Positions 7,651-42,874 of a stretch of 64,000 nt of DNA are shown here, in pieces. The notes beneath the pieces were generated by a model. It was not told the DNA's origin, did not search any database, and saw only the letters and a program-made list of their open reading frames with translations. The position numbers were made by a program, and so were the translations under genes. Source of the stretch: a plasmid; the sequence record NZ_CP118109.1. One strand, written 5' to 3'. The first letter of the stretch is position 1, and every line of letters begins with the position of its first letter.

Positions 7651-7664
7651 AACATTGCATAATG

Positions 7665-17208: not shown

Positions 17209-18790
17209 TATAAGAATGTGGTGGCGGAAGAGAGACGCTTAGGTCTAAGGCAGATACGACTCGGTGAGCCCCGGCGCAATTCTCAGAGAGGCGGACTAGA
17301 AACCGCGCTGTAGAAACGTAGAGCCGGATTAGGGCCGTGGGAACCTGTAAGGGGAAGTCAGTTAGGCTGCTACCCGTGATGATGAAATGCTGCTATGCAA
17401 GGGAGAATGGCCCTTGCCCACATTCTTGCTCTCATTCAGCGCACAAGAGTACTGTCCCCCCGGTCTTGAGGACAGCGGCTTGCAACTGAAACCGGTAAAG
17501 GAGCCGACCTTGTGCGTTGAATGAGGGTCTTTTATTCACCCTTTTTTTCCCCTCATCTAAGAACTATAAAGGGTAGGTTATCTGATTTAGCCGTAGGAAG
17601 TCTGGAGTTATTCGTTAGTAGGTTTGTAGGCGCTGCAGAGCCGATCACTGAGGACGGTAGCCTGGATGGACTATTCAAAAATCAGACGACAGTATGCAAA
17701 AACTGACGTTACACAACAGCCAGGACCGAACCTGCAAAAAAGGCGATGAAGAGAGGCAAAAGATGGGCCCTCCGCGACAACCTAGGGGTGTGATGAGGGT
17801 TGTCATGATCATACTGGATGTGAGTCTGCCATGATAGCTTAATTGGGAAAGCGCATGACTGAGAATCATGAGATGCGGTTCAATTCCGATGTGGTGGCAT
17901 TCTAGTATGATTCACTTATGTAGGCGCACTGATGATCTTGTCCGGTTCCGCAAGCCACGCTGATGCGGGTAGACTGGTCTTGTATCGAATCTGAGAGAGT
18001 AAATAGTGGATTAGAAACGGGCGGCTTAAATGACCGGCAACGCGTGGCTTGCCGGCATCATAAGCTGGAGTGTTTCGGCTCCGTTTGCATCCCTTGCTTT
18101 GCGACAGCAGTTAGTCACACGAAACGCAGAACCCTTAGTGACTTTCAGTGCGCTACATAGATTTGTCCGGAATAGCTTAACGGTAGAGCGCTCGTATAAA
18201 CCCATACGAGAGATCAGAGGTTCGATTCCCGTTTCCGGCTTCTGCATTTAGCATACAAGTAAAGACCGTAGATCAGCCAGAGACCTCTGTATTATTTACT
18301 TGAAAAGGTGCGTTGTGTACGAAACTTTTCAAGTAAACAATATAGGCAAGTAGCGAAAGCTATTATAAGTCCAATTGTTTTCTGGTGCATGGATGCTTAA
18401 ATGGGATCAGGTGCAACAAGTGCCAATGGCAGGGTAGAAGACTCGAATCGGTTGCTTTAAGTTTCCGTTTATCGGATCGGATGGATGCTTGAACAGTAAT
18501 GTTCTTGATCGTGAAAAACACCTTTCATCCTATATGCTTAAAGACCTGCAGCTTGTATGTTAAATGGAGAAAGTTTGTGGGGCGGATTAAGTCTCAATGG
18601 ATTGGACGAGGGCGAAGCTTACTATTAATTTCAGGTAGGATCTTCAGGCATCGAGCAGTTGGGTGTCTGAAGACTATCTTTAAATCCTATATGCCGAAAG
18701 GCCAAGGCTTAATGACCCTAACGAAAACTTTCCGAGACTCACAGGTGATCTGCAGTCGGGTAAGCGGTAAAGACCGGCGTACATAATATA
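17209..18790 (+). ncRNA. about 1.6 kb ORF-free, GC-elevated, structure-rich region: candidate large non-coding RNA(s) with tRNA-like fragments
   Basis: only short both-strand overlapping ORFs without RBS; many GC hairpins; internal intrinsic terminator at 17523; tRNA-like D-arm TAGCTTAACGGTAGAGCG and GGTTCGATTCC T-loop near 18170-18245. Confidence 0.5.
17523..17551 (+). terminator. intrinsic terminator inside the non-coding region (likely 3' end of a roughly 330-nt RNA)
   Basis: gggtg-cttttattc-caccc followed by TTTTTTT, nested in atgaggg/ccctcat stem. Confidence 0.55.
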
Positions 18791-18803
18791 AAGGAGGCTT
18801 CCT

Positions 18804-19109
18804 ATGAATATCCCTGAAATTAGGCTCCGTAATGGAAAATTAGCTACATATAAATCATCCAGGCAAACGCGGATTCCTGATATGGGTATTAACGAATTAA
18901 CGGAAGTCCATAGTTTTCGTATCCCTTGCCCAGTATGTGATTACAATGAAGATAATATTGCCGTTTCACAAGACGGCATTGTCTTTCTAAATAGCCAGAT
19001 TGTCTGCCGGTTCTGTGGAGTATTTTTCCGTCCGGTAATAGATCCTGCATTCATAAAAGAGCAGCGGCTTGTCCGCTCGACTATATCCCAAAATGAAGCC
19101 GCCAAATAA
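18804..19109 (+). CDS. Zn-ribbon protein
   Basis: strong RBS aaaggaggc; CPVCD...CRFCG. Confidence 0.55.
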   Translation: MNIPEIRLRNGKLATYKSSRQTRIPDMGINELTEVHSFRIPCPVCDYNEDNIAVSQDGIVFLNSQIVCRFCGVFFRPVIDPAFIKEQRLVRSTISQNEAAK

Positions 19110-19125
19110 GCCGGCTTTTTATTAT

Positions 19126-19374
19126 GTTGAAGGAGATGAATTAATGGATCTTTTTGATTTTGCCGATCAGCAGGAAGAAAAAGAGGAAGTTTACTTACCA
19201 GTAGAAGGAGATCGTGTTTTTATCCCCTCTATTGAGCAGAATGGAGTAGTAGATTATATAGATCAAAAGACTCTCTTTGTTGATGAATATTTTCCGAATC
19301 AAGTAATATTAGATGTTCCTTATGATTACTCAGCACTAATTCGCACTAATTTGAGAGATATTAAAAAAGAATAA
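19126..19374 (+). CDS. hypothetical acidic protein
   Basis: ATG after ggagatgaa; the track start at 19069 sits inside the upstream gene. Confidence 0.4.
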   Translation, partial: VEGDELMDLFDFADQQEEKEEVYLPVEGDRVFIPSIEQNGVVDYIDQKTLFVDEYFPNQVILDVPYDYSALIRTNLRDIKKE

Positions 19375-19436
19375 CTTGCCATTTTTGCAAAAAAGTTTTA
19401 TTCTAACTGTTGAGAATTGTCGAGGGGAGAATAGAA

Positions 19437-20270
19437 ATGATTAATAATATTGATGCCAGTGACTTAGACTCTCTCATAAGTCAGCTAAAAAACACTTTTT
19501 CATTTGGTGACTGGGATAAGATTATACTTTTAGCTGAAAAACTTATAGAGAAAACTAATGTTATTAATAATATAACGAAGATGACTGGTGTTAATTTTAA
19601 TCAAGCAGAGAGAAGCCTGGTTTATTATTATGGCTTCGCATATATGGCTATTGGATCAGCTTACGAACATAAGTGTGATTTCTCTAGGGCCAGAGAATGG
19701 GCTCTTAAATATAGGGACTGGTCTTCTGTTTCATCGCCAACTTCTGAGGATATCAGATGGATGAATCATTGGACTAAATTGTCTGAAATTAATGTGATTG
19801 TTGTCGATCTCCTTATGGGAAAAAATGAAGCTCTTGATCAAATTGCTGATTATATATTGGAGCATCCTGAAGATGCCCTAGCCGGATTAATCACAATGCT
19901 CGATGCTGCAAACAAAAATGATATAAATATTGATCATGTCCTTGCTCGTATTCCAGATGATTTCTGGCAGAACGATAAAAGCACAGGTGTTGTCAACATG
20001 TCTTATCAGTATAGATTTTTTCGCCAACTATCCCTTTACAAACAAAAATGTAATGAGTTACATTTTTGTTTAGAAAATCTCTTGCGCGCTTTATCATTAG
20101 CTGATAAAATGAAAAACGTAGATGACTTTAAGGAATGTATTCAAGTTTTTGAATCTCTTAAAGATCACGCCGACAAGCGTCAAGAGAAAAAATATAACCG
20201 GATAGTAAAGGGAGCGATTAGGCATGAAAAAGTTGTTTCTATCAGCATTGCTAACATTAGGGATTCTTAG
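19437..20270 (+). CDS. alpha-helical TPR-like receptor candidate (RRNPP/Rap-like)
   Basis: RBS gaggggagaatagaa; helical repeats such as YYYGFAYMAIGSAYEH...AREWALKY; 3' end overlaps a secreted pre-peptide gene. Confidence 0.5.
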   Translation: MINNIDASDLDSLISQLKNTFSFGDWDKIILLAEKLIEKTNVINNITKMTGVNFNQAERSLVYYYGFAYMAIGSAYEHKCDFSRAREWALKYRDWSSVSSPTSEDIRWMNHWTKLSEINVIVVDLLMGKNEALDQIADYILEHPEDALAGLITMLDAANKNDINIDHVLARIPDDFWQNDKSTGVVNMSYQYRFFRQLSLYKQKCNELHFCLENLLRALSLADKMKNVDDFKECIQVFESLKDHADKRQEKKYNRIVKGAIRHEKVVSISIANIRDS

Positions 20271-22599: not shown

Positions 22600-22691
22600 T
22601 AAAAATGCATCAAAATACTGACAGGTATTATCATGGTGAGGGCCGCCTTTGTGCGGCTTTTCCCATGTATATCATCATATGGGGGATTCCT

Positions 22692-23738
22692 ATGTCAAAT
22701 AAGGTATATAATGACTCATTGTATAACGAGGATGTGAAATTAAAGTTCCTAGAGTTAATGAAAAAGAATGGTTGTTCTGAAAATACATTAGTTACATATA
22801 AGCGAGTTTTTCTACGCGCATCTGGATTAGAAAAAAGATTTAAGACGGATCTGTATGATTTTACATTCGAATATATAGAAAAACTCTTAATCAAGATGAA
22901 TCATACAACATTAAACTCCGCAATAAGCAGCATTAGCATCATAAGAAGTTACATTGATTGGGCGATACAGAACAAGTACAGAAAGGTGCCTTTAAGCCCA
23001 CTGGACGTATTCACTACGAAGGAATTGGCCCAGCGATACAAGAACAAACGAGTAAGAGTATATTTTACACATGCTGAAGTGCAAAAGTTTGCAGATAGCG
23101 CTGTGAATGCGCAGGATAAGGCTCTCATTTGGGCAATGTTTCATGGTATATGTGGAAATGGGATGGCAGAACTAAGGAATCTTACGTTGTATGATATTGA
23201 TCAGCATAACTATAAATTGACTCTTAAGGACGATGATTCAGAGAGAGTTATTGAACTCATCTCAGATGAACAAAAAAAATTGATCGACCACCTTCTTAAA
23301 GCCCATGAGCAAACTCATTATCTAAAGGGAAACGGAAAGTCTGTTGCTAAAAACCCTATCGGTTTCTTAGCAAAAAATAACCATGTATTTAGGCCTATGA
23401 TTCGTGGAGACAGTTCTACTGCTTCTTATCATGTTTTAAGAAATAGACTTGTAGATATATCAAAAATCAACGAAGAGCCGCAACTAACTTCCCCTATTTC
23501 GTTAAGATATAGTGGGATGCTTTATATGGCTTATTGTGAATATCAAAAGCATGGGGCGTTGAGTCTTGAGTCCATAAAGAGAATTTCAGATTTCTATGCT
23601 ATCAGTAAAGTAACTGATTCCAAATATGACAACTTCTTTATTCGAAGAGAATTTTTAACCGAAGAAACGATCATAAAGGAATATCTCTCTGGAGACGAAG
23701 GAGAAGAAGACTATGGAGTTGATGCAAAGATATTTTGA
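22692..23738 (+). CDS. tyrosine-recombinase/integrase-like protein (tentative)
   Basis: N-terminal SAM-like segment TLNSAISSISIIRSYIDWAI; C-terminal SYHVLRNRLV (HxLR-like) and downstream Tyr; motifs weak. Confidence 0.4.
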   Translation: MSNKVYNDSLYNEDVKLKFLELMKKNGCSENTLVTYKRVFLRASGLEKRFKTDLYDFTFEYIEKLLIKMNHTTLNSAISSISIIRSYIDWAIQNKYRKVPLSPLDVFTTKELAQRYKNKRVRVYFTHAEVQKFADSAVNAQDKALIWAMFHGICGNGMAELRNLTLYDIDQHNYKLTLKDDDSERVIELISDEQKKLIDHLLKAHEQTHYLKGNGKSVAKNPIGFLAKNNHVFRPMIRGDSSTASYHVLRNRLVDISKINEEPQLTSPISLRYSGMLYMAYCEYQKHGALSLESIKRISDFYAISKVTDSKYDNFFIRREFLTEETIIKEYLSGDEGEEDYGVDAKIF

Positions 23739-25048: not shown

Positions 25049-26092
25049 TTAACGAAGCAATTGAAGAACTGCTTGTGGTTGTTGGTTTGCTTGAGCCAAC
25101 ATTGCTTGAGCTGCTTGGGAAAGAATCGAGTTCTTAGTTTGCTCAACCATTTCTTTCGCCATGTCAACGTCACGAATACGGGATTCAGATGCTGTCAGGT
25201 TCTCTGCTGTTGTACCCAGGTTATTTACTGTGTGCTCCAAACGGTTTTGTACGGAACCCAATTTAGAACGCTCAGCAGATACGCTCTCGATCGCTGCGTT
25301 AATTGTAGTGATTGCTGTATCAGCGTCTTCTTGGTTAGAAATGTTGATACCAGCGTTTACTTTTGCTTCATCAGCATATGCTTCGTCAACTTTGACAACC
25401 ATTTTGTCGCCATCGTAGTAACCAGCTACAACAACATCATCTTCGGTTGCCTTTCTAGTTGTACCATTACCACTGCCATCGTCAATGTCGTCTCCGACAT
25501 TAACTGCTTCTTTAAAAGTAAGTGTAGTTGTTCCGGCAGTCAAAGTTGCAGTAGTGCCATCGTTATCAGATGTGTACTCTGTGCTTACTTTCAGCGCTTC
25601 AGCGCCCATGTCACTAATTGAAAGACTAATGCTTTGACCTGCATTTGCTCCGATTTGGAATGTAACATTTTCAGCAGAACCATTGATCAGCTTTTTCGTA
25701 TTGAACTCAGTGTCTGTAGAGATACGAGTCAATTCTTCAGCTAATTGGTTTACTTCTTTTTGAAGCTCTGCGCGGTCGGAATCCGTGTTTGTGTCAGATG
25801 CTGATTGAACTGCCAGCTCACGCATACGTTGCAGGATAGAATGAGATTCATTCAATGCACCTTCAGCTGTCTGGATCAGTGAGATACCATCTTGAGCGTT
25901 ACGAGAAGCTTGCTCAAGACCGCGGATTTGTCCACGCATTTTTTCGGAGATTGCAAGACCCGCTGCGTCATCACCAGCACGGTTGATGCGAAGACCGGAA
26001 GACAATTTCTCCATGTTTTTTCCTTGTGCAGAGTTAGCTGCGCCCAGGCTGCGTTGAGTGTTAATCGCCGCAATGTTGTGATTGATAATCAT
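25049..26092 (-). CDS. hag: flagellin
   Basis: N-terminal [17 protein letters not shown]...[30 protein letters not shown] and C-terminal flagellin helices; RBS GGAGG. Confidence 0.9.
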
Positions 26093-26150: not shown

Positions 26151-26348
26151 TTAGAGCGGCAGTCCATTTTGTCTGCAGAGCTCTTTTTGTTCGTCTGACA
26201 AGATCTCTTCCCTGAGTATCTTAACGTCATTCGGAGCAGTTATTTCTAACTTTGGATTGCCGTAATCATCGACCTTCACTTTAATATGTATGGAATTGCC
26301 GATAATGATCGACTCACCCGCTCTTCTGTTGACTGTTAATTTTCCCAT
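26151..26348 (-). CDS. csrA: carbon storage regulator CsrA
   Basis: MGKLTVNRRAGESIIIGNSIHIKVKVDDYGNPKLEITAPNDVKILREEI; track ORF over-extended upstream. Confidence 0.75.
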   Translation of the reverse strand: MGKLTVNRRAGESIIIGNSIHIKVKVDDYGNPKLEITAPNDVKILREEILSDEQKELCRQNGLPL

Positions 26349-26382
26349 GCCGACTACCAACTTCCCTATTGTGATAGTTATT

Positions 26383-26409
26383 TTATCGGCGGGATCCGGA
26401 AATAGTTTA
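26383..26409 (-). promoter_or_regulatory. sigma-D (sigma-28) type promoter TAAA-N15-GCCGATAA driving csrA-hag
   Basis: minus-strand tggtaTAAActatttccggatcccGCCGATAAaa, close to B. subtilis sigma-D consensus TAAA-N15-GCCGATAT. Confidence 0.6.
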
Positions 26410-26445
26410 TACCATTTTAAAAAAATTTTATTGGAGCTGATAAAT

Positions 26446-26790
26446 ATGAAATATAACCCTACTCTACTCAACGTTTTTAATCTTAATAAATTTGATCCTC
26501 GTGAGTTAACGTATAGCGAAAAAATGCTGGTCGAGGAATATCTTGGCGAAATCTTAGAGGAACAATATTCCGGAGACATCCAAGAAATTATCCATTATCA
26601 AGATAAACGCATTACATTTAGCGAGGATTCTGAAGGCTTCAAACTGCCCCTAGCAAACGATCTACCACTTGAATATAACCTATGGAATATAAATAGTTTA
26701 TTCGCCTATGGAGAGGCTGATATGGAGCTTGTGGCGGTCTTAGAGAATCCCGAAAATACAATGAATCAGGTGATGGTTAGTATGTATTAA
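26446..26790 (+). CDS. hypothetical protein
   Basis: ATG with ggag 8 nt upstream; track ORF 26290 is over-extended. Confidence 0.5.
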   Translation: MKYNPTLLNVFNLNKFDPRELTYSEKMLVEEYLGEILEEQYSGDIQEIIHYQDKRITFSEDSEGFKLPLANDLPLEYNLWNINSLFAYGEADMELVAVLENPENTMNQVMVSMY

Positions 26791-28159: not shown

Positions 28160-28470
28160 CGATTCACTTATCCACAGCTCTGCCTATTATTTATATATGG
28201 TGGAGAAAAGATTTTATTAAAGAAAGTACTTCTTTGCGTTAAATTTTTTAACCCCCCTCTTTAAAATTTTTAACGTAATAGCCTTTCGTTAAAATTTTTA
28301 ACGTAATGTTTTTGCCTAAAATCGTTACGTTAAAAATTTTAACATAAGGGTTATCCACAGATCGATCTACTACGTTAAAATTTTTAACGTAATGAGCTTC
28401 AACTCTCAAATTCGTTACGTTAAAAATTTTAACGTAAGAGATAACCACAAAATCTGTGGATAACTTTTCA
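28160..28470. other. oriC-like replication origin: three perfect DnaA boxes plus AT-rich palindromic repeat array
   Basis: TTATCCACA at 28168 and 28351, TGTGGATAA at 28455, degenerate ATAACCACA at 28441; sits next to initiator-like gene. Confidence 0.6.
28245..28436. repeat. five to six copies of 23-bp AT-rich palindrome TTACGTTAAAAATTTTAACGTAA
   Basis: copies near 28261, 28288, 28325, 28371, 28414; each is self-complementary. Confidence 0.8.
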
Positions 28471-28475
28471 ATAAA

Positions 28476-28510
28476 AAAAGCAGAAGGATGTCTCCCTCTG
28501 CTCTCTTTTT
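28476..28510. terminator. bidirectional terminator
   Basis: aaaaaaa-gcagaagg-atgtct-ccctctgc-tctcttttt. Confidence 0.5.
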
Positions 28511-29501
28511 ACAAAAATTTTTCTGCTGTAGTAACACAAATAATTGCATCATTATTGTTGGTCAAATCTCTAAAGATGTTAAGAATTTGCTTCGAATGAT
28601 AATTATCAATCCATTCTGCAGCGAATGGCGCAGGCGCAAGCACCACCAGTTTGTTATCTTCGAAGAACCCAAAAGTCTCTTTAAACCATGTGCCAAATGT
28701 AACGGCGCTTATAGATCGTTTCAAGATATCTTCGATCTCACTCCATAAGTGAATGTCTTGAGGTGTTCGATTCAGGAACAGCTCTTCACGTTTTTTGTTG
28801 ATCCTTACTTCCAACGGAGCGGTGACTTCAATTGATCCAGGTGTTCTAGCTCTCCCCTTCTCATGCAGCTTCTTAATCTCGTCTTCATGATCATTATTCT
28901 CTGGGAGCATAACCTCGTTAGACTCAAAAAGTTTTTCCATAAAGCGATTATGTTGAAGGAGTAGCCACTCAGGCAGCTGCTTCAGCTCTGCCTCACTTAA
29001 GAAAGGAACGGTCTGTCTTACTTTCACTCGAGTGCTATCATTCATTCCCTTTTTCTTTTTACTCTCTGCCCAGAACCGCATAACAAAACCGTAGTCTTCA
29101 AGTTTACTTAGGTATTTAATCAGTGTAACACGACTGATCCCCATCATTTCTGCCATGTGTTCTTGTGACATATGAGGGATTGATTCGTTGAATGAAAGGC
29201 TCAGATAATTTATGTAGGTCATGGTAGCTTCTGGCCCAAGAAAGTATTGCCAAAATTTAATCAGATAATTGTGAACGGTGGTTTTGTTGCCTGGTGTGTA
29301 AGGCAGTGAAAGACCCAAGTTCTCGAGCGAATAACTAGTGACATCTTTTTCAGTGTAATAGATCTTCCTCGTCTCCTCGACCATTTCCTCAATGCTCTCC
29401 CCGTTAACTTTTCTTTTTCGCGGCACCTTATTTCCCGTCTTTTCATAGCGGAAATAATGTATGTCATTCGTGCTGTCGCCCATCTTCAAAGACCTCCTCA
29501 A
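28509..29501 (-). CDS. replication-initiator/organizer-like protein with central HTH
   Basis: MAEMMGISRVTLIKYLSKLEDYGFV helix-turn-helix; adjacent to DnaA-box origin. Confidence 0.5.
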   Translation of the reverse strand: MRRSLKMGDSTNDIHYFRYEKTGNKVPRKRKVNGESIEEMVEETRKIYYTEKDVTSYSLENLGLSLPYTPGNKTTVHNYLIKFWQYFLGPEATMTYINYLSLSFNESIPHMSQEHMAEMMGISRVTLIKYLSKLEDYGFVMRFWAESKKKKGMNDSTRVKVRQTVPFLSEAELKQLPEWLLLQHNRFMEKLFESNEVMLPENNDHEDEIKKLHEKGRARTPGSIEVTAPLEVRINKKREELFLNRTPQDIHLWSEIEDILKRSISAVTFGTWFKETFGFFEDNKLVVLAPAPFAAEWIDNYHSKQILNIFRDLTNNNDAIICVTTAEKFL

Positions 29502-33940: not shown

Positions 33941-34393
33941 TTATACTTTTGTCTCAATATGAACTGCCTCAAGGTCGGTATAAATGGATCCATCAAAGAC
34001 GAGCGTGCCAACAATGATTCCTCTTATGAAATGCTGCTTAGTAAGTATTTCAATGGAGGTTCTATCTTGCCACTCTATAAATTTTCTCATATCTTTTAAA
34101 TTGCTAAATGTAAAAGGTATGCTTGCGATTACTCTTGAAGTTGTGAATGCACTCGAAGGACGCAAGTGCATATCAAACGAGCCAGTCGTATTTGAATATA
34201 TGTGATCATTAAGTTTCTCGATCTTTACAGAAGTAGCATAGCCTTTAATAATTTCATCCGTCATTGGATTATAAATAAGCGCCATGTTTTCTTCATGCCA
34301 ATGCTTTTCACTTTCAGGAACATTCAGCTTCATAGAGAATAGCCATTTATATACATCCAGATCTCTTTTTAGATAAGTGCTCATCAATTCCAT
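33941..34393 (-). CDS. hypothetical protein
   Basis: ORF track. Confidence 0.5.
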   Translation of the reverse strand: MELMSTYLKRDLDVYKWLFSMKLNVPESEKHWHEENMALIYNPMTDEIIKGYATSVKIEKLNDHIYSNTTGSFDMHLRPSSAFTTSRVIASIPFTFSNLKDMRKFIEWQDRTSIEILTKQHFIRGIIVGTLVFDGSIYTDLEAVHIETKV

Positions 34394-34737
34394 TATTCGT
34401 ATTCCTTACAATTGAATGTGAGCAGCCAGCTACCGTCCATTTGCCGGCCAAGCCTATGATAGACAATTTGATATGCCCGCTCTCCCCCGCCTATGAATTT
34501 CATCATCAAAACACGCATGCGATCTTCCCATCCATCCATAGATGGATCGTCTTTAAGTTCTTCCATGACCCACTCTTCAATAATGACTTTGCCCTGTGTT
34601 ACATCTGAATAGTCCGGATGGGGCCTAAACTCCTCTAATCGTGACACCGTCAGAGATACGGTTTGCTTCCTTTTATTTACTATCCAGAGCATAAAGCTCT
34701 CGACAGTTTGATCTAAATAGACTTCCATGAGATTCAC
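34393..34737 (-). CDS. hypothetical protein
   Basis: ATGA-type overlap with downstream gene. Confidence 0.5.
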   Translation of the reverse strand: MNLMEVYLDQTVESFMLWIVNKRKQTVSLTVSRLEEFRPHPDYSDVTQGKVIIEEWVMEELKDDPSMDGWEDRMRVLMMKFIGGGERAYQIVYHRLGRQMDGSWLLTFNCKEYE

Positions 34738-34755
34738 AGATGACTCCTCCTCTTA

Positions 34756-37700
34756 TTAGCTAAATTCCACCTGGAACTGATTCATTATTTCCTCTTCCGA
34801 TTGTTCGGCATGATCCATGTACGTAATTTTATCTACGATGAGATCTGAACCGCTTCGTTTGCCGACGACTTTAATCTTGCGTCCGATAATGAAGTCATCT
34901 GCATTCTTGCTCCATATCTTATTGAAGATGACTAGACTCAATTCATCCTCTGCCGTCTCTATCTTCGCCTTACCTGTTACCTTGCCGCTACTCTTGGCTG
35001 TGAAAGGCTTAGACTCTATAATGTAGCCGGTGAACGTGATATTCTCTCTGCCATCTTCAATGCTATCCCACCGAGAACGAATGCTTACATTTGTGCCGAG
35101 CATTTCACGCTCATAGGCGATAATGTCCTTCTTCGTTGTTTTGGATGGCATATGTTCAAACTCTTCGCCGCGGTATTCGAAATATCTGCGCAATAAGAGA
35201 TTGCGGTTGTCGGATATTGTATCGAAACTTCCGGACTTAATGAGATTGGATGTTTTTGTTTTATTGAGTTTCATTGTTCTATTGGCCAATAAGAAATCAT
35301 CAAATTCTTTGAATGGTCGGCATTCCGTAATGACATCAAGATCTTTGCTGCTGACTCCTGCGATACTTGCAAGGCCATACAAAATCTTACCAAGACCTTC
35401 TTCGCCCTCTTGAGCATTGATTGGTGTCCAGCTGTCGTTAGAGTAGTTGATATCTGGTGGCAGGATGCTGATTCCCATTTCTTCGCATTCTTTCATGTAT
35501 GCAACGTTACGGGGAACACCATCTTTCAGCTTGCCCTCTGAGATTGTCATGAGCGCAGCCATAAACTCTGTTGGATAGTAAGCCTTCAGATAAGCTGTCA
35601 TAACAGAGAGTACTGCGTAGCAAGCGCTATGCGCATAGTTGAAGCAGTAGTCACCGAACTTGATCCAGTCTTCTTTGATTTTAAGAAGTGTTGCCTCGTC
35701 ATATCCAAGGGAAATAGCTCCTGGAATGTTAAGTGGCTCTTTGCCTTTAGCGATTAGCTCAGCATCTTTTTCAGCGCTGCCATAGATCATGTAGTTGATC
35801 CATTCTTCCATTAGTGCGTGATTCTTTTTCGAGATGGCTTTACGCAGGATATCAGATTGACCGGTAGTGAATCCTCCAAGAATCATGGAAGCTTTCATGA
35901 TCTGCTCTTGGTAGACCCAAATACCATAGGTCTTTCCAAGAACCGGCTCTAAGCTATCGAACGGATAAGTAACTCTCTCTTGTCCTTTCTTTCTTCGGAT
36001 ATAAGAGGGAATAAGGTCGAGTGGTCCTGGTCTGCCTAACGCTACGATAACGGAAATATCCTCTACATTTGAAGGCTCCATGTCTTTGATGATTCCGCGG
36101 AATAGATCAGACTCGCACTGGAAGATTCCTGAGAGATTCAGCTTATTATAAATTTCTTCATAAATCTTCGGATCATTAAAGTTAATTGTATTCAGATCAA
36201 GCTCCATAATCCCTGCATTCTGCTTCGTCTTCTTGATCAGGTCGAGGGTAGACAGCTTAAGAATGTCGAATTTAACTAGGAACTTTTCGATCCACTCCAT
36301 ATCGTATTGAGTTGTCGTAAGTCCTTCCTTATCCAGTCGAAGAGGTACGGTGTTCGTAAGCGGCTTAGGTGAAAGAACGATGCCTCCAGCATGCACTCCT
36401 GCACTTCTGACGTGCCCCTCAAGTGCTTTGGCAGCTTGCCACCATTCAGGATATCTATCTGCATACATCCGAGTTTCAGGTGATATCTGATAAGCACCAT
36501 CCACTTCTTTTCCGTTTTTATTAATATACTTGTCTAATGTAATGCCTGGCGTTTCGGGAATAGACTTCGCAAACCGGTCTTGATCCTGCGCACCGTATCC
36601 AAGTGCCTTACCAACTGCACGAATAACCGATCTACCTGCAAGAGTTCCATAGGTGCCAATCTGAGCTACGTTAAGATCACCGTATTTCTGCTTCATGTAT
36701 TCCTGTACAGCTCTAGCGCCTTCATAGGAGAAGTCTACGTCGATATCTGGATAGCCTGCGCGTTCTGGATTCAGGAAGCGCTCAAACATTAGATCCCATT
36801 TAATCGGATCGATCGTTGTAATGCCAATAACGAAAGCAACGAGTGAACCGGCAGCGGATCCCCTTCCAGGTCCTACTTCGAATCCATTTTCCTTCGCCCA
36901 GTTAATATAGTCAGATACAATCAGAAAGTAATCAGCAAATCCAAGTGGATTAATAACACTCAGCTCATATTGAAGCTGTTGACTGTATTGCTCCAGATCA
37001 ATCGGCGTCTTTAATGCGTAGGTGAACAGCCGGTTCCATGCCAGCTTCTCTAGCTGCTCTTCCGCTGTATCATTCTCATCAACAATGTATTTAGGGAACA
37101 AAGGATCTTTGGGCAAGTCTACATCGACCAACTCTGCAATTCTGAGCGTATTTTCAATGGCTTCATCATCGTTAATAATCTCACGAATCTCATCCTCTGA
37201 TTTCATCCAGAACTCATGAGCGTATACCAAGCGATCATTATCATGAATACATTTATTCATACTGGATGCAACTAGAATATCGTGGATGTCACGGTCGTCT
37301 TTATTGGCATAGTGAACATCTGTTGTTACGATTTTCGGCGTGTTTGTTTCCAGAGCCAGCTGGTCAATGATTTCATTAAGCCTGATTTGCTCTGGGATGC
37401 GCGTTGCCTGCTTCTCCAAATAAAATGAGTGAAACGTCTCTTTGCACTCCTGTATGAATGAGCGACACTCTGCCAGATCACCAGCAAGGGCAAAGCGAGC
37501 AAGGTAACTACCAAGACAAGCAGAGGTAGCAATAATGTGCTTGCCAAGACCACGATCACGAATAAAGGCAAGATCGGTACGAGGATTACTATAAAAACCG
37601 CTGATATGAGCATCTGAAATAATTTCATATAAGTCCTCCAATCCTTGTTGGTTAGTGGCCATCAGGACAATATGAAAGTTATCATGCTTGATTAGTTCAT

Positions 37701-38211
37701 AGAACTCTTTCCGGAAGTCTTCAAGCGCATCGTCTGGCGAAAACCCTACAACGAGTGGTTTCTCTTCTTCCATCATGCCGAAACCAAACAAGTCTAATTC
37801 TTCTTCTGATCCACTAGCCATAGACTTAAGATCTTCACGCATGATGTAGTCCTTTAGCAGCTCCCGAGCTTCAAGCATAAAGTTATCAGGATTGTTTCTC
37901 ACTGCTTTCCGAAATGCCTTCCAAGCCTTGTCCTTGATGCCGTATTTCTCTAAAAAAATAGCTTTTGAAGCTTTATGGAAATCACTTTTAAGGTGGCGAT
38001 TCTTCGTCATATAAGCTTCGCAGCCTGGGATCGGTTTGATCCCTTCCTCTTTGCATGCCGTTATAAAATCGGGAATAGCCCCGCAAACGCCGTGATCCGT
38101 AATGGCGAGCGCGGAGCTACCGATTTCCTTTGCACGCTTGACGAGGTCTTTTACGGTAGAAAGACCATCAAGCTCTGAGTATTCACAGTGTACATGTAAA
38201 TGATTGATCAT
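34756..38211 (-). CDS. dnaE: DNA polymerase III alpha subunit (DnaE-type, N-terminal PHP domain)
   Basis: PHP HVHCEYSELDG...ITDHG; GFEVGPGRGSAAGSLVAFVIGIT; RBS aaggagag. Confidence 0.9.
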   Translation of the reverse strand: MINHLHVHCEYSELDGLSTVKDLVKRAKEIGSSALAITDHGVCGAIPDFITACKEEGIKPIPGCEAYMTKNRHLKSDFHKASKAIFLEKYGIKDKAWKAFRKAVRNNPDNFMLEARELLKDYIMREDLKSMASGSEEELDLFGFGMMEEEKPLVVGFSPDDALEDFRKEFYELIKHDNFHIVLMATNQQGLEDLYEIISDAHISGFYSNPRTDLAFIRDRGLGKHIIATSACLGSYLARFALAGDLAECRSFIQECKETFHSFYLEKQATRIPEQIRLNEIIDQLALETNTPKIVTTDVHYANKDDRDIHDILVASSMNKCIHDNDRLVYAHEFWMKSEDEIREIINDDEAIENTLRIAELVDVDLPKDPLFPKYIVDENDTAEEQLEKLAWNRLFTYALKTPIDLEQYSQQLQYELSVINPLGFADYFLIVSDYINWAKENGFEVGPGRGSAAGSLVAFVIGITTIDPIKWDLMFERFLNPERAGYPDIDVDFSYEGARAVQEYMKQKYGDLNVAQIGTYGTLAGRSVIRAVGKALGYGAQDQDRFAKSIPETPGITLDKYINKNGKEVDGAYQISPETRMYADRYPEWWQAAKALEGHVRSAGVHAGGIVLSPKPLTNTVPLRLDKEGLTTTQYDMEWIEKFLVKFDILKLSTLDLIKKTKQNAGIMELDLNTINFNDPKIYEEIYNKLNLSGIFQCESDLFRGIIKDMEPSNVEDISVIVALGRPGPLDLIPSYIRRKKGQERVTYPFDSLEPVLGKTYGIWVYQEQIMKASMILGGFTTGQSDILRKAISKKNHALMEEWINYMIYGSAEKDAELIAKGKEPLNIPGAISLGYDEATLLKIKEDWIKFGDYCFNYAHSACYAVLSVMTAYLKAYYPTEFMAALMTISEGKLKDGVPRNVAYMKECEEMGISILPPDINYSNDSWTPINAQEGEEGLGKILYGLASIAGVSSKDLDVITECRPFKEFDDFLLANRTMKLNKTKTSNLIKSGSFDTISDNRNLLLRRYFEYRGEEFEHMPSKTTKKDIIAYEREMLGTNVSIRSRWDSIEDGRENITFTGYIIESKPFTAKSSGKVTGKAKIETAEDELSLVIFNKIWSKNADDFIIGRKIKVVGKRSGSDLIVDKITYMDHAEQSEEEIMNQFQVEFS

Positions 38212-38233
38212 AGATGACTCGCTCTCCTTGCGA

Positions 38234-38530
38234 TTAATCTTTCGACTGGCCTTCCCCGATCACGTCGAGCGATGAAATAATTGGCCCAAATCTTCCATCT
38301 GCGCGCTTTACAACAGTAGTTGGAGCTACAGGCGATCCAATAACAACCATGCCTCCTACGCCGCTAGTTAGAATGATGGAGCGTGTTTTTCTTCCTTGTG
38401 TCATGTCCACATAGCGCCCATCGTCTTTAGCTTGAGTCATCATGCGACGTATTGGTGAGCTGTCTGGACGACTGATTGAAATGATCTTGCTTTCTTCAAT
38501 GAAATTTCCAAAACCGATATCGATGTACAT
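38234..38530 (-). CDS. remA: RemA/YlzA (DUF370) family DNA-binding regulator
   Basis: IDIGFGNFI, SRPDSSPIRR, GRKTRSII, EGQ: matches RemA hallmark segments. Confidence 0.65.
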   Translation of the reverse strand: MYIDIGFGNFIEESKIISISRPDSSPIRRMMTQAKDDGRYVDMTQGRKTRSIILTSGVGGMVVIGSPVAPTTVVKRADGRFGPIISSLDVIGEGQSKD

Positions 38531-38533
38531 AAG

Positions 38534-39397
38534 TTAATCCACCTTTGAGAAAGTTATATTTTTCTCAGCTACTTCGCGCACAAGATCTCCATTTGTGTCG
38601 CCGGTGATTACGTCGGGGATAGGTCTGCCTTCTTTTATAGCAGCTCTGATATTTTCGACATCCTTATAAGCTTCGCTGCCGAAGTTAAACGGATTAGGAT
38701 TACGGATACTACCATCATTCTTGGCACTATCTGAGTGGCAGTAGATATTAAAAGGGCAATCTTTGCACTTATAATTGCTCGGCGTATATCCTTTTTCAAG
38801 CGGAGGGAGCATTCTGTCTTTGGCCAGCTGTATACATTCGTTTGCTTTTTGCTCTAGCTTCTTGCCGTATACAGGGTCGTAATTCATGTGGTATTCCCAA
38901 ACGTCTTGTGTATCCTTCTCTTCAACGAAAATGATTCCTTTGTGGATGCCAGATAAATGCATGTAAAACGTAAGCTGCGCTTTATGTTCAGCCTTTGGTT
39001 TATTGTTTTCTTTCATCCACTTAAAGCTATGACTGAATGCGCTCTTTAGTTCCACCAAGAACTTTTCCCCAAAGGGATTTAGAAAGCTTGGAATACTGAT
39101 AAGCGCATCCGTATGTCCGCTGATATCGTCCCGCTCTAACTTCATTTCTGCCTGAACGAGGACTCCCATATCAGCGAACAATTTCTCGTAACGGTGATGC
39201 ATGCTATGACCATTTTCGAAGATTCGGATGAGCTGCGGATCAGTTTCTGGCTTCGGAACCATAAGCATATCGAATACGATTTTCCGCTTACACATGCCGA
39301 TCGTAGAAGGATGAAGCTTTCTCATCGGCCTTGTTTCATTGGCTAGTTTCTTTTTTTGATGTCGTTCGATATAGGTTTGAAGCAATCCCGCCATCAT
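38534..39397 (-). CDS. Cas4/RecB-like PD-(D/E)xK nuclease with Cys cluster
   Basis: GHTDALI, FLVELK (ExK), QLTFYMH, CKDCPFNIYC. Confidence 0.55.
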   Translation of the reverse strand: MMAGLLQTYIERHQKKKLANETRPMRKLHPSTIGMCKRKIVFDMLMVPKPETDPQLIRIFENGHSMHHRYEKLFADMGVLVQAEMKLERDDISGHTDALISIPSFLNPFGEKFLVELKSAFSHSFKWMKENNKPKAEHKAQLTFYMHLSGIHKGIIFVEEKDTQDVWEYHMNYDPVYGKKLEQKANECIQLAKDRMLPPLEKGYTPSNYKCKDCPFNIYCHSDSAKNDGSIRNPNPFNFGSEAYKDVENIRAAIKEGRPIPDVITGDTNGDLVREVAEKNITFSKVD

Positions 39398-39412
39398 CCG
39401 ACCCCCTCCATG

Positions 39413-39432
39413 AAATGTAATGCGTTACATTT
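39413..39432. promoter_or_regulatory. palindrome AAATGTAATGCGTTACATTT between TTTATAAT and RBS
   Basis: direct read. Confidence 0.6.
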
Positions 39433-39482
39433 CAATTATAAACGAGATAATAGAAGGAATCAAGAGAAAAACGGAGATAAAC

Positions 39483-39731
39483 TTAATTATCTCCGCTTAC
39501 TGCCTCTTCATCTTCGGTTGTGAGATCTGAATACATTTCTCGGTTGCATAAGACAATTTGATTAAAGAACTTACTGGGTACAATTAGATTTCCTGCAACA
39601 ACATAGTTATCTCGTTCAGTGATTTCTTTCAGTCTTAGTTCCAATGGAAAATGATTTAAGTTGTTCGAACAATCCAAGGTGGCAACTCCAGCAATCATAG
39701 TGTTCTCGTTAAAGTTCATCATCGTAGACAT
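39483..39731 (-). CDS. hypothetical protein
   Basis: ORF track. Confidence 0.4.
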   Translation of the reverse strand: MSTMMNFNENTMIAGVATLDCSNNLNHFPLELRLKEITERDNYVVAGNLIVPSKFFNQIVLCNREMYSDLTTEDEEAVSGDN

Positions 39732-40498
39732 TTTATTTCTCCCTTTACACGTTTTTCGCGGAAGCTATCAGCGATTCGTTTTCGAATGCGATAAACAGAT
39801 CGATGATGGAGCCCGTTAATTCGAGCAATCTCTCTATCTGTCATGCCTTCATCGTAAGCCTTAAGAAGAATAAATCTTTCGCTATAACTCAGTTCTTTGA
39901 ACAAATCGCTACCTACTATGCCGTTCAACCACAGAATATTGTCCAGTTCAGTATACTCATCAACCTCCATATTTAGAGGCTCATAATAATACTTGTTTTC
40001 TATGATGCTGTCTATGGCTCGATCGTCATTTATGTAGCGGTCATCTTTGTAAGAGTACTGTTCTTCTTCCATACTCTCGAACATCTTATTATCCACAAAC
40101 CGCTTTACTCGGTATCTAAACACACTGTATACATATCGGCTAAAGCCGAATCCCATTTCTTTATAGGAGTGCGCACATTCTAACAATACGATTAGCAGCT
40201 CATGCTCAATCTCCGCTATATCATAGACGGAGAAAGTGTCTCGAATGTTCTTGATGACATCATAAACCTTCTCGATCGTTTCGCTTTTGCATCCTCCAGC
40301 TTTACAAAGATCATTGATGATTTCAGCTTCCCGAATGAAGCAGGATAAAAATCGCTTAGAATCATAGCTTTTAAAATCCATTTCTCCGTAGACGAGAAGC
40401 CTGCTGTATCTTCGTATCATCTTGTGATATCTTCTCATCAGAGGATTGGCATCGCCTTCTTCAAGATAACTATGAAGCGGATCGTGTTGCTTCTTCAT
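39719..40498 (-). CDS. sigma-70-family sigma-factor-like protein (region 4 HTH)
   Basis: MTDREIARINGLHHRSVYRIRKRI; RBS gaggaagg. Confidence 0.5.
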   Translation of the reverse strand: MKKQHDPLHSYLEEGDANPLMRRYHKMIRRYSRLLVYGEMDFKSYDSKRFLSCFIREAEIINDLCKAGGCKSETIEKVYDVIKNIRDTFSVYDIAEIEHELLIVLLECAHSYKEMGFGFSRYVYSVFRYRVKRFVDNKMFESMEEEQYSYKDDRYINDDRAIDSIIENKYYYEPLNMEVDEYTELDNILWLNGIVGSDLFKELSYSERFILLKAYDEGMTDREIARINGLHHRSVYRIRKRIADSFREKRVKGEIKCLR

Positions 40499-41054
40499 AT
40501 TCCTTCCTCACGTCCTCCAGATCAATCTCGTCAGCTTTCCGAAAGATCCGAAGCTCGAAGTAAGGCTGAATGCCGGAATCTTTTTCTAAATAGTGAAAAT
40601 CTTTTACTCTTGGCAGGGCATAGTGGTCGTTCTTGTAAATGACGCCTTCTAAAGCATCCATCATTAGCTTGAAGACATTATGAGTATCACGTTTCTTCTC
40701 ATCTGGAAAGTAGGCTGTAAGTTCAAGCACGACTTTATCTTTTGTCGTCATTTTCCAATCATTTTTTAAGCTCCAGGCGTAAGCCAAAGCGTGCCATTTT
40801 TCAAATAGATCTTCTGCCGGCTTCGTCAGCTTCTTGCCGCCTCTGCCCGTATTTTCATAGATATGGTTAACGGAAGGGTAGAAACCAGGGTCTCCAAGTG
40901 CCTCTACATGGGTGTAAACTTTCTTCACTGGCTTTAGCTTGCCCTTGCCGTTTAACTCCTTTTTAATCTTCCATCTTCCAGTGACGGGGTCCTTTTCTTT
41001 CTCATAAGACTTATAGCTCCCGAACATCATCATCGGCAGGATAAGTGTTTCCAT
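40470..41054 (-). CDS. rusA: RusA-family Holliday junction resolvase
   Basis: PSVNHIY and DTHNVFKLMMDALEGVIYKNDH; RBS aaggaga. Confidence 0.65.
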   Translation of the reverse strand: METLILPMMMFGSYKSYEKEKDPVTGRWKIKKELNGKGKLKPVKKVYTHVEALGDPGFYPSVNHIYENTGRGGKKLTKPAEDLFEKWHALAYAWSLKNDWKMTTKDKVVLELTAYFPDEKKRDTHNVFKLMMDALEGVIYKNDHYALPRVKDFHYLEKDSGIQPYFELRIFRKADEIDLEDVRKEYEEATRSAS

Positions 41055-41067
41055 GATCGGTATCTCC

Positions 41068-41322
41068 TTAGTAGTAAATAATGCGAATATCGAAGTCGTC
41101 GTGGATCAATACTAATGGCTTGATAATCTGAAGCACCTTTATATGACCCTCGGACTCCCTCATTGATAAAGGAAGTAACACTTTGTCGTATTGCTTACCC
41201 CTCATTGCTTCTTTCGTGAGACTATCGAATCCGATCACATCTATATGACTTAGCTTGGTTACTGTTTTAACACAGGAGGTTTCGCCCTCTATGATCATTA
41301 AGATGTCTGTATTTTTAGCCAT
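41068..41322 (-). CDS. hypothetical protein
   Basis: ORF track. Confidence 0.45.
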   Translation of the reverse strand: MAKNTDILMIIEGETSCVKTVTKLSHIDVIGFDSLTKEAMRGKQYDKVLLPLSMRESEGHIKVLQIIKPLVLIHDDFDIRIIYY

Positions 41323-41696
41323 TATTTATTCACCTTTATTGCCATCGTGGGAATGTGCATACATGTGATAATTAATGCTTCACCAATGAAGCGTCCTTCA
41401 CTATCGTATCGCTTGTTGTAATTAAGATCACGGCCAGTAAATTTTTCTGGATCAAGTCCGTATTCTTGCTTTACATACTTCAAGACTGTCGCCTCTAAGA
41501 TAGCGTCACGAGTAATATTCACCTGATCTTTCATTCGGAGCTCGTCCCATTCAGCTTCTTCCTCGTCAGCGATCTTATTCATAACAGCGCAGAACTCATC
41601 GAAGGTTAGTCTGCAGGTGCGGCCAAGTTCATCAAACTGCTCCGGCTCCAAGATAAAGTCAATGTTCGTGACTCCTTGTTCGGACTTTTTTGACAT
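41322..41696 (-). CDS. hypothetical acidic protein (start uncertain; track extends to 41786)
   Basis: internal ATG 14 nt after stop of the upstream small ORF. Confidence 0.4.
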   Translation of the reverse strand: MSKKSEQGVTNIDFILEPEQFDELGRTCRLTFDEFCAVMNKIADEEEAEWDELRMKDQVNITRDAILEATVLKYVKQEYGLDPEKFTGRDLNYNKRYDSEGRFIGEALIITCMHIPTMAIKVNK

Positions 41697-41709
41697 CTTT
41701 ACAAGTTTC

Positions 41710-41880
41710 TCATCTTCCTTGCTCTCCGTCTGCTGGCTTTCCACTGCCCAATTCCTTTTCGGACCGATCCTCATTCTCTTTGACATCTCCTTTCTTAGGT
41801 GCTAAATCTTCCGTGAATACACCACGACCTAGGTCTTCAATAATACGATATCCTCCCATGTTTTCACCACCATTCTCCAT
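41710..41880 (-). CDS. small protein MENGGENMGGYRIIEDLGRG... (57 aa)
   Basis: first ORF after palindrome/promoter; overlaps the track ORF 41322..41786 in another frame. Confidence 0.3.
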   Translation of the reverse strand: MENGGENMGGYRIIEDLGRGVFTEDLAPKKGDVKENEDRSEKELGSGKPADGEQGR

Positions 41881-41907
41881 TATAGTCTCTATATCTCTTG
41901 TTTACTT

Positions 41908-41936
41908 AAAATGTAATGCGTTACGTTTTACATTAT
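41908..41936. promoter_or_regulatory. palindrome variant AAATGTAATGCGTTACG+TTTTACATT downstream of TGTTATAAT
   Basis: direct read. Confidence 0.55.
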
Positions 41937-41952
41937 AACACAATTTCTGCAT

Positions 41953-41978
41953 AAAAAAAGAGGGGATTTCACCCCTCC
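41953..41978 (-). terminator. terminator after protease gene
   Basis: A-run then gagggg-atttca-cccctc. Confidence 0.6.
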
Positions 41979-41980
41979 TA

Positions 41981-42874
41981 TTAGCCGATTAATTTTTCGA
42001 GATCGATAAGCCCATCGCCAGTATAAATGTCTCTGCCTGGAATACTTAAATCCTCACAGGATTCTTCTAGCTTTGCATGAACTTCTTCTAGCGTGGGCTC
42101 TACTCCTTGCCCTCTGCAGAAGCTAATATACAGTGCAATACATCCAGAGATAATAGGCGCTGCCATGCTGGTGCCGGATAGCTTCGCATAACCTCCATCT
42201 TTATACGTAGAGAAGATGTCTACACCAGGAGCCATGACTTCATTCTTGATGCCATAGTTACTGAATGGAGCTCTCTCTTTCCCTGGAGACATTGCAGATA
42301 CAGCGATTACTTCGTCATACATGGCTGGCCAACATACACCTGTATTTTCATTGCCTGTAGCAGCAACAACTATAATACCTGCGGCAGCCGCTTCTTTAAT
42401 GGCTTTGTGTAATTCCAGAGGCGGCTCGCTTGCACAGCCGAGACTCATGTTGATGATATCTACATTTTGCTCAATTGCCCACCGCAAGCCATTGATAATG
42501 GATTGAAAGTTGCCTCCTCCATTGTCTCCAAGGACTTTTGCGACATACAGCTCTGCATCAGGTGCGATCCCCACAACTCCTATTCCGTTGTCTGCCGCTC
42601 CAATGATGCCAGCAACATGTGTTCCATGCCCTTGTTTGTCTTCAGGTCCATACGGAGAGCGAGTGAAGTCTGCATAGACTTTCAAGTTCGGCTGCAGGTC
42701 TGGATGATCACGATCCACGCCCGTATCAAGGACAGCCACTTTGACTCCTTTACCGGTTGTGGTATTCCATACATCGGGTGCATTTACGGCTTCAATACCC
42801 CAATCAATAATGTCATCGCGCATCTCTGCGCCATGGGTTTGGACGATTTTATAGTCCGCCTGGGTGTCACTCAT
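41981..42874 (-). CDS. subtilisin-like serine protease (peptidase S8)
   Basis: catalytic D (VAVLDTGVD), H (HGTHVAGII), S (GTSMAAPIISG). Confidence 0.85.
   Translation of the reverse strand: MSDTQADYKIVQTHGAEMRDDIIDWGIEAVNAPDVWNTTTGKGVKVAVLDTGVDRDHPDLQPNLKVYADFTRSPYGPEDKQGHGTHVAGIIGAADNGIGVVGIAPDAELYVAKVLGDNGGGNFQSIINGLRWAIEQNVDIINMSLGCASEPPLELHKAIKEAAAAGIIVVAATGNENTGVCWPAMYDEVIAVSAMSPGKERAPFSNYGIKNEVMAPGVDIFSTYKDGGYAKLSGTSMAAPIISGCIALYISFCRGQGVEPTLEEVHAKLEESCEDLSIPGRDIYTGDGLIDLEKLIG

Follow-up and report, generated by a model that had tools for sequence, protein, structure and literature searches.

We found that a gene for a small protein of the RemA/DUF370 family lies between a Cas4-like nuclease gene and dnaE in a 64,000-nt stretch of plasmid DNA (record NZ_CP118109.1; hereafter the window), and that this protein belongs to what appears to be an undescribed, discrete and element-specific RemA subfamily in which interface residues are altered. 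Its position directly 5' of dnaE, fixed across phage-plasmids of ~140-260 kb from at least four genera, and its location within a conserved promoter-operator regulon likewise appear to be undescribed. To our knowledge, RemA has been characterised as a chromosomal biofilm-matrix activator, and only in Bacillus. Because the element-borne gene holds its position 5' of the element's dnaE in all known relatives, a role on the element's own DNA is likelier than one at host biofilm genes, and we tentatively favour the possibility that the protein forms rings and serves as an architectural regulator on the element's DNA rather than as a dedicated switch for host matrix genes.

The open reading frame (38234..38530, minus strand, ATG start) is real, and its 98-aa product is a member of the RemA/DUF370 family far above chance, as an earlier note on this DNA had proposed from short motifs. 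The protein matches PF04025 of Pfam with E=9.1e-22 (77.4 bits, the cut-off being 26, over profile positions 2-72 of 73), RemA of Geobacillus thermodenitrificans (PDB 7bm2) with E=3.3e-15, and Bacillus RemA with 39% identity and E=2e-20 in BLASTP, the C-terminal EGQ included; the Bacillus comparison sequence is an exact match to the record "extracellular matrix/biofilm regulator RemA [Bacillus]". An AlphaFold model built from a 90-sequence alignment has a mean pLDDT of 85, with 10-residue block means of 92-97 over residues 1-70 and values below 50 at residues 81-90. The predicted strands (2-6, 9-12, 16-20, 40-42, 51-57 and 60-66) and helices (25-36 and 70-78) give the wedge-shaped beta-beta-alpha fold of six strands and two helices, and a Foldseek search of the PDB at E<=0.001 returned RemA entries only (E=6e-9, target-normalised TM 0.85-0.92, rmsd 1.3-1.8 A). 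The check that the note had suggested, alignment and structure prediction against RemA, thus yielded a significant match and a fold shared with RemA structures alone; the motifs that it had named are all present, as DIGFGNF, PDSSPIRR, GRKTR and IGEGQ, although EGQ is no hallmark of the family as a whole.

Membership in the family does not extend to the narrower models. The protein scores 70.4 bits with the RemA equivalog profile NF046064 of NCBIfam, under its cut-off of 140, and 82 with PRK04323, whose cut-off is 87. RemB (YaaB) of B. subtilis is a member of the same DUF370 superfamily, and a RemB orthologue was considered and ruled out by a score of 18.5 bits with NCBIfam NF046065, far under the cut-off of 40. 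No PADLOC defence-system model matches the protein, the Cas4 models matching the neighbouring gene only, and PHROGs holds no family for it or for two other phage-borne RemA-like proteins. An identical protein, WP_047913152.1 (TCA2_4617), is encoded on a 214,846-bp contig of Paenibacillus sp. TCA20 and is also on record for Paenibacillus urinalis. Its NCBI name is already "RemA family protein"; the family assignment being in public annotation, the bare observation is not new. On these elements, the database name RemA is a family label and no evidence of a biofilm function.

Among 5.8 billion proteins, a profile search recovered ~44 sequences at 111-151 bits, set off from cellular RemAs, which reach at most 88 bits. 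Many of the ~44 lie on contigs of 198-219 kb, and the carriers are phage-plasmids and jumbo-phage contigs of 140-260 kb from Bacillales, with hosts in at least four genera (Paenibacillus, Alicyclobacillus, Bacillus and Oceanobacillus). Neighbour joining of 95 sequences placed 43 of the 44 group members in one clade, with a bootstrap support of only 47%, so the group is defined mainly by a shared insertion, signature residues and the gap in profile score.

RemA is a small protein that assembles as a ring (8-mer, 16-mer) and wraps DNA on its outer face by means of a basic loop. Residues R50, R51 and R53 lie on the outer surface and bind DNA, and the substitutions R50A and R51A abolish both DNA binding and eps activation (PMC8481266). 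When 44 group members were compared with 46 cellular RemAs, this surface proved to be shared: G46-R47-K48-T49-R50 of the element-borne protein (codons at 38381..38395, minus strand) is the counterpart of the DNA-binding loop G49-R50-R51-T52-R53, with R47, K48 and R50 standing for R50, R51 and R53, so that the basic loop is kept. Positions 50-53 read K/R, K, T, R in 43-44 of the 44 group members and R, K, T, R in 44-46 of the 46 cellular proteins, and lysine at the middle position of the loop is the majority state among the latter (45/46). Residues P29, R32, D36 and D/E39 of helix alpha-1 serve back-to-back formation of the RemA 16-mer, and P29S and R32A are inactive (PMC8481266). The element-borne protein conserves P26, R29 and D36 in this helix, P29 being present in 44/44 group members and 46/46 cellular RemAs and R32 in 44/44 and 45/46, respectively; RemA D36 is replaced by Q33, and across the group by K, Q, H or E.

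The contact between adjacent subunits differs. In RemA, R18 forms a salt bridge to D59 of the adjacent subunit, and R18W changes 8-mers into 7-mers that still bind DNA but no longer activate in vivo (PMC8481266). The corresponding residues are K15 and S56 in the element-borne protein, and the inter-subunit salt bridge is not kept: position 18 is lysine in 38/44 group members as against 1/46 cellular RemAs (arginine in 45/46), and aspartate at position 59 occurs in 0/44 as against 44/46. A three-residue insertion in the hairpin turn is present in 44/44 group members and 0/46 cellular RemAs. It falls here in residues 56-62 (SGVGGMV; codons at 38345..38365, minus strand), a beta-hairpin turn in which D59 and H62 are lost; H62 is a histidine in 44/46 cellular RemAs, and in the group the position falls inside the insertion, with no histidine among the residues listed. 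The group is further marked by aspartate at the position of N7 (44/44 versus 0/46), by E or D at position 15 (40/44 versus 0/46) and by a median length of 103 aa versus 86 aa. Judged by these counts, the predicted DNA-contacting surface is conserved in the group and the ring-setting contact is re-wired. The C-terminal IGEGQ (residues 91-95; codons at 38246..38260, minus strand) ends the low-confidence tail of the model, and a [DG]EG motif is found in 16/48 group members versus 4/175 sampled family members outside the clade, Bacillus RemA being among the 4. How ring stoichiometry governs RemA activity is a question left by the structural study (PMC8481266), for which the interface variants of the group (K18, loss of D59, the hairpin insertion) would be natural probes.

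The Cas4-like PD-(D/E)XK exonuclease gene (38534..39397, minus strand; PHROG 1990 E=2e-33, PADLOC Cas4 E=2e-11) is the first gene of a transcription unit in which it is followed, after a 3-nt gap, by the RemA-like gene and, after a gap of 22 nt, by the gene for a DnaE-type DNA polymerase III alpha subunit with four Pfam domains (34756..38211, minus strand). The two neighbours and the setting in a phage-type replication module are therefore as the earlier note had described them, but it had put the RemA-like gene downstream of dnaE and upstream of the Cas4-like gene; with all three genes on the minus strand, the order is the reverse, the RemA-like gene lying 3' of the Cas4-like gene and 5' of dnaE. 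GC and GC3 of the RemA-like gene match those of the adjacent genes. A Shine-Dalgarno sequence, AAGGTGG (38539..38545, minus strand), lies 8 nt 5' of its start, within the last codons of the Cas4-like gene, a position that suggests translational coupling of the two. The sole intergenic gap 5' of the unit (39398-39482) contains, in order, a terminator-like hairpin of 12 pairs and a T-run (39469..39498, minus strand), which closes an upstream unit of a sigma-like gene and an 82-aa gene, a sigma-A-type promoter-like site, TTGATT-17-TATAAT (39435..39463, minus strand), and an operator-like perfect palindrome of 18 bp, AATGTAACGCATTACATT (39414..39431), 3 nt past the -10 hexamer. The sigma-like gene (39719..40498, minus strand; PHROG 351 E=1e-8) encodes a divergent sigma-70-like/HTH_23 protein and is located two to three genes 5' of the RemA-like gene in all relatives. 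Its product scores 28 bits with TIGR02937, under the cut-off of 43, and the orthologue from B. licheniformis carries a sigma-70 family annotation; the sequence is weakly indicative of a sigma identity.

The palindrome recurs. Sites of the 18-bp form AATGTAAYGCRTTACATT number ~13 in the window, with 23 strand matches at <=3 mismatches versus 0.12 expected; they lie at 7661, 16707, 20047, 30899, 33883, 39414, 41910, 42916, 50758, 51901 and 61791, and weaker ones at 47602 and 59685. The palindrome often stands 3-4 nt past a TATAAT-like -10 with a TTGATT -35, and one site lies directly 5' of the amidase/endolysin gene in the same position relative to a TATAAT-like hexamer, while the scan of the window placed no site near the csrA-hag genes. 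Its core, TGTAAYRYRTTACA, is kept at orthologous sites in relatives whose proteins share only 50-60% identity, and in a B. licheniformis plasmid that has no Cas4-like gene the core lies ~160 nt 5' of the RemA-like gene. The palindrome thus looks like a regulon-wide operator. From its distribution we infer that the Cas4-like/RemA-like/dnaE unit probably forms part of a regulon of the element's developmental genes under operator control and that csrA-hag is regulated separately. The assignment of these candidate operator promoters to the lytic cycle comes solely from the motif that they share with the endolysin gene, and expression of the replication genes during carriage is also conceivable in a plasmid-like prophage. 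Binding sites of RemA are poorly conserved; a crude scan of the window for 10-bp-periodic A/T tracts, as candidate RemA-type arrays, gave nothing convincing, and tandem-repeat finding detected no array close to the RemA-like gene.

The remainder of the window encodes primases, helicases, a sliding clamp, a class Ib ribonucleotide reductase, RusA, an S8 peptidase and an amidase endolysin, together with a virion structural protein (PHROG 19670, E=4e-105) that is distantly related to those of Moorella phage MTATph1, Bacillus phage 0305phi8-36 and vB_BauM_KLEB27-3. The nearest DnaE is that of MTATph1, at 39% identity; to judge from such matches, the element is a distant relative within the wider 0305phi8-36-like group. 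A megablast search of positions 34000-42000 against deposited phages returned no match. Among deposited plasmids, related elements of 140-260 kb come from Paenibacillus rhizovicinus (228,841 bp), three B. licheniformis (205-212 kb, of which NZ_CP035189 is recorded as circular and complete), B. paralicheniformis, B. halotolerans, two B. thuringiensis and B. cereus G9842; the other relatives are IMG/VR viral contigs of up to 229 kb. The mixture of phage and plasmid gene content, taken with these records, indicates that the window is part of a phage-plasmid or temperate jumbo phage of ~215 kb. A gene for an initiator-like protein with HTH and DnaA_N domains (28509..29501, minus strand) adjoins a repeat- and palindrome-rich stretch (28262-28449) with units of the CGTTAAAATTTTTAACG type near a strand switch, which is a candidate origin. 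A tyrosine recombinase gene at 22605..23738 (plus strand; Pfam MrpR_N_CB and MrpR_C_cat) is MrpR-like, as would suit the resolution of plasmid multimers and a plasmid-like way of life. Two tRNA genes (17828-17899 and 18166-18240, plus strand) are the sole Rfam matches in the window, and ARAGORN called the first only, as tRNA-Leu (GAG) at 17828-17899.

In every related locus read, drawn from metagenome, Logan, IMG/VR, GTDB and PLSDB records, the gene order is S8 peptidase, RusA, sigma-like/HTH, usually Cas4-like, RemA-like and DnaE, and at every one examined the RemA-like gene lies immediately 5' of dnaE with a gap of 12-23 nt. When loci were sought with the Cas4-like protein as the only query and without regard to RemA, all six of six proved to carry the RemA-like gene, and its adjacency to dnaE is kept in a B. 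licheniformis plasmid, B. thuringiensis p1 and Oceanobacillus, where no Cas4-like gene was detected. Relatives with a DnaE identity as low as 49% (L043) still have the gene. MTATph1, with 39%, has none, the stop of its Cas4-like gene coinciding with the start of DnaE; we conclude that the RemA-like gene was acquired once within the lineage and then kept. Identity among relatives is 39-61% for the RemA-like protein versus 48-84% for the Cas4-like protein and 49-79% for DnaE, so that it evolves faster than its neighbours, and dN/dS in the least saturated pairs is 0.21, 0.26 and 0.05; the gene is under purifying selection. Among the 2.9 million contigs of IMG/VR, 16 RemA-like loci were found, of which 12 belong to this family, 3 to a lineage of small phages and 1 to a divergent singleton. 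A tblastn search of 50,697 deposited phage records detected a homologue in no true phage. The single match, MT835883.1 (L008, "Bacteriophage sp."), was rejected as a bacterial contig with the order glmS-yicC-remA-gmk-rpoZ-priA-def-fmt, and a further candidate element from a genome scan (L021) was rejected as a cellular remA locus. Bacillus phage vB_BauM_KLEB27-3 has no RemA, and the neighbourhood of its dnaE differs.

One could envision the following mechanism, for which ring assembly, DNA wrapping, the timing of expression and the identity of the DNA target are what we infer for this protein. The RemA-like protein, the Cas4-like protein and DnaE would be co-transcribed from the operator-controlled sigma-A-type promoter; the RemA-like ring would wrap the element's DNA via its conserved basic loop, and this wrapping of upstream DNA would most probably activate the element's promoters, where the sigma-like factor might partner the RemA-like protein. 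A RemA-type wrapping ring as co-activator for the element's sigma factor would, if true, be as new as a viral capture of RemA-based host control. The selective maintenance of a discrete RemA subfamily at a fixed place in the replication operons of these elements suggests that mobile elements can enlist the RemA ring, as a DNA-architectural module of general use, for their own transcription or replication.

The alternative put forward in the earlier note is that the element encodes both motility-side and biofilm-side regulators of its host. The csrA-hag cassette that it had cited does exist: a flagellin gene with Flagellin_N and Flagellin_C domains (25049..26092, minus strand; Flagellin_N E=6e-47; 53% identity to B. 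subtilis Hag) is accompanied by an open reading frame with a CsrA domain in its C-terminal part (26151..26579, minus strand; E=1e-11), and a hag-csrA pair is annotated on five related Bacillus plasmids of ~200 kb. As for RemA, the regulator reading holds as homology in sequence and predicted fold, but a function at host matrix genes follows only from the family name. A host-directed mimic of RemA would bind host promoters of the eps/tapA type and drive carriers to biofilm in concert with the element's CsrA and flagellin. The DNA-binding loop and P29, R32 and D/E39 of helix alpha-1 are retained, the [DG]EG tail is common to Bacillus RemA and rare elsewhere in the family, the csrA-hag pair here and on the five plasmids indicates that such elements do carry genes of host physiology, and the deposition of relatives as plasmids, some of them circular and complete, makes long-term carriage plausible. 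We nevertheless regard this mimic as unlikely. The equivalog score is 70 bits against a cut-off of 140; the R18-D59 contact is gone and the hairpin carries an insertion, while in RemA R18W alone is enough to kill activation in vivo; the position in the replication operon is fixed over four host genera, which is not moron-like; the promoter-operator is common to the endolysin gene and not to csrA-hag; and a flagellin match is absent from at least two of eight RemA-bearing Bacillus plasmids. A broader form of the proposal, that Bacillales phage-plasmids of ~200 kb deploy CsrA, flagellin and a virus-specific RemA paralogue whose ring geometry has changed, and so reset the host's choice between motility and biofilm during carriage, strikes us as equally doubtful; if true, it would be the first case of a virus taking over the RemA node, and any action on host promoters would be a new viral route to biofilm control in soil and food Bacillales. 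The same positional and promoter arguments apply to a competitor or poison of host RemA, which would occupy its sites or co-assemble with it into rings of the wrong geometry, blocking matrix activation. An intact DNA-binding loop beside an altered ring interface does resemble R18W, which binds DNA, forms 7-mers and is inactive in vivo, but this is analogy only, and the interface changes could equally prevent mixing with host subunits; we consider such a poison very unlikely.

Replication or recombination itself might instead be served, the ring wrapping or remodelling the origin or intermediates and working physically with DnaE or the Cas4-like nuclease. The adjacency to dnaE is invariant, at gaps of 12-23 nt, even where the Cas4-like gene is missing; the start of the RemA-like gene overlaps or nearly abuts the preceding gene; and the gene was acquired within the lineage, MTATph1 having the Cas4-like/DnaE order with no gene between. 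However, the element has its own sliding clamp, primases, helicases and initiator-like protein, and adjacency of phage genes often reflects the timing of expression rather than a physical partnership. We also know of no RemA-family protein in replication, which counts against this explanation, and we judge it quite improbable. That the open reading frame is a non-functional passenger or an annotation artefact deserves almost no credence, since nothing beyond its small size speaks for it, whereas the strong ribosome-binding site, ~44 conserved orthologues, dN/dS well below 1 and a confident fold prediction speak against it.

Among known systems, the closest is RemA (YlzA) of B. subtilis and G. 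thermodenitrificans (7BM2; PMC8481266), with which the protein shares its Pfam family, its predicted fold, 39-44% identity, the basic loop, P29 and R32, and an EGQ-type C-terminal tail as in Bacillus RemA. It differs in its context, a phage-plasmid Cas4-like/dnaE operon versus chromosomal yicC-remA-gmk-rpoZ(-priA), which is the cellular arrangement seen in L008 and L021, and in the changes R18 to K and D36 to Q, the loss of D59 and H62, the three-residue hairpin insertion, a longer tail and a sub-equivalog score. A pair of neighbouring RemA subunits can be overlaid on a single LytTR domain, with their basic loops at equivalent DNA-contacting positions (PMC8481266). Loops equivalent to those of LytTR, the C-terminal domain of AgrA, are kept in the RemA-like protein; unlike AgrA, it has no receiver domain and no LytTR match at the sequence level, and Foldseek returned RemA entries only. 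The 0305phi8-36-like jumbo phages and MTATph1 share with the element the virion protein (22-29% identity) and DnaE (35-39%), and MTATph1 also the order of protease, resolvase, regulator, Cas4-like and DnaE, but no RemA-like protein is detectable in them, the RemA-bearing relatives being plasmid records and metagenomic contigs only. TF1 of phage SPO1 is an HU homologue, a phage-encoded copy of a host architectural protein. By analogy, a large phage of Bacillales would here keep a diverged small host protein that bends or wraps DNA among its early or middle genes; the folds are unrelated, and the likeness is conceptual. No paper on a RemA carried by a phage or plasmid turned up in a literature search, and a jumbo-phage survey mentions neither DUF370 nor LytTR, its matches to "RemA" being words such as "remain".

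RemA-like genes also occur in unrelated phages. An 85-aa form (Pfam 90 bits; L016:2212-2469 and L018:5962-6219) belongs to a lineage of 21-37 kb phages (L016-L018), in which it stands at the early/late boundary and is followed by genes for an HTH protein, an integrase-family protein and the small and large terminase subunits. The HTH protein has a weak, sub-threshold similarity to sigma region 4, and the pairing is faintly suggestive of the view that these proteins are promoter activators. A divergent 90-aa form in another phage lineage (L048:978-1250) has a degenerate basic loop (GRGVCS). In the global protein library, tandem RemA-like repeats, 2, 3 or 7 in a single polypeptide, are found in P0013, P0014, P0016, P0020, P0043 and others; P0013, of 531 aa and with 7 repeats, is a possible single-chain ring, although its single-sequence AlphaFold model has a pLDDT of 29.

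Several minor features of the related loci were observed. In L004 a gene for IS605 OrfB/TnpB (Cas12f-like) is found at 18644-19822, ~8 kb downstream of the RemA-like gene, and this region also has a guanylate kinase gene in L004, L005 and L031. On bacterial chromosomes gmk is a neighbour of remA, a resemblance that is probably a coincidence. Finally, dnaE is split into two open reading frames in several relatives (L002:10313-14952, L004:10342-13978, L020 and L026), with a LAGLIDADG-type reading frame between the halves in L002, and is uninterrupted in the window.
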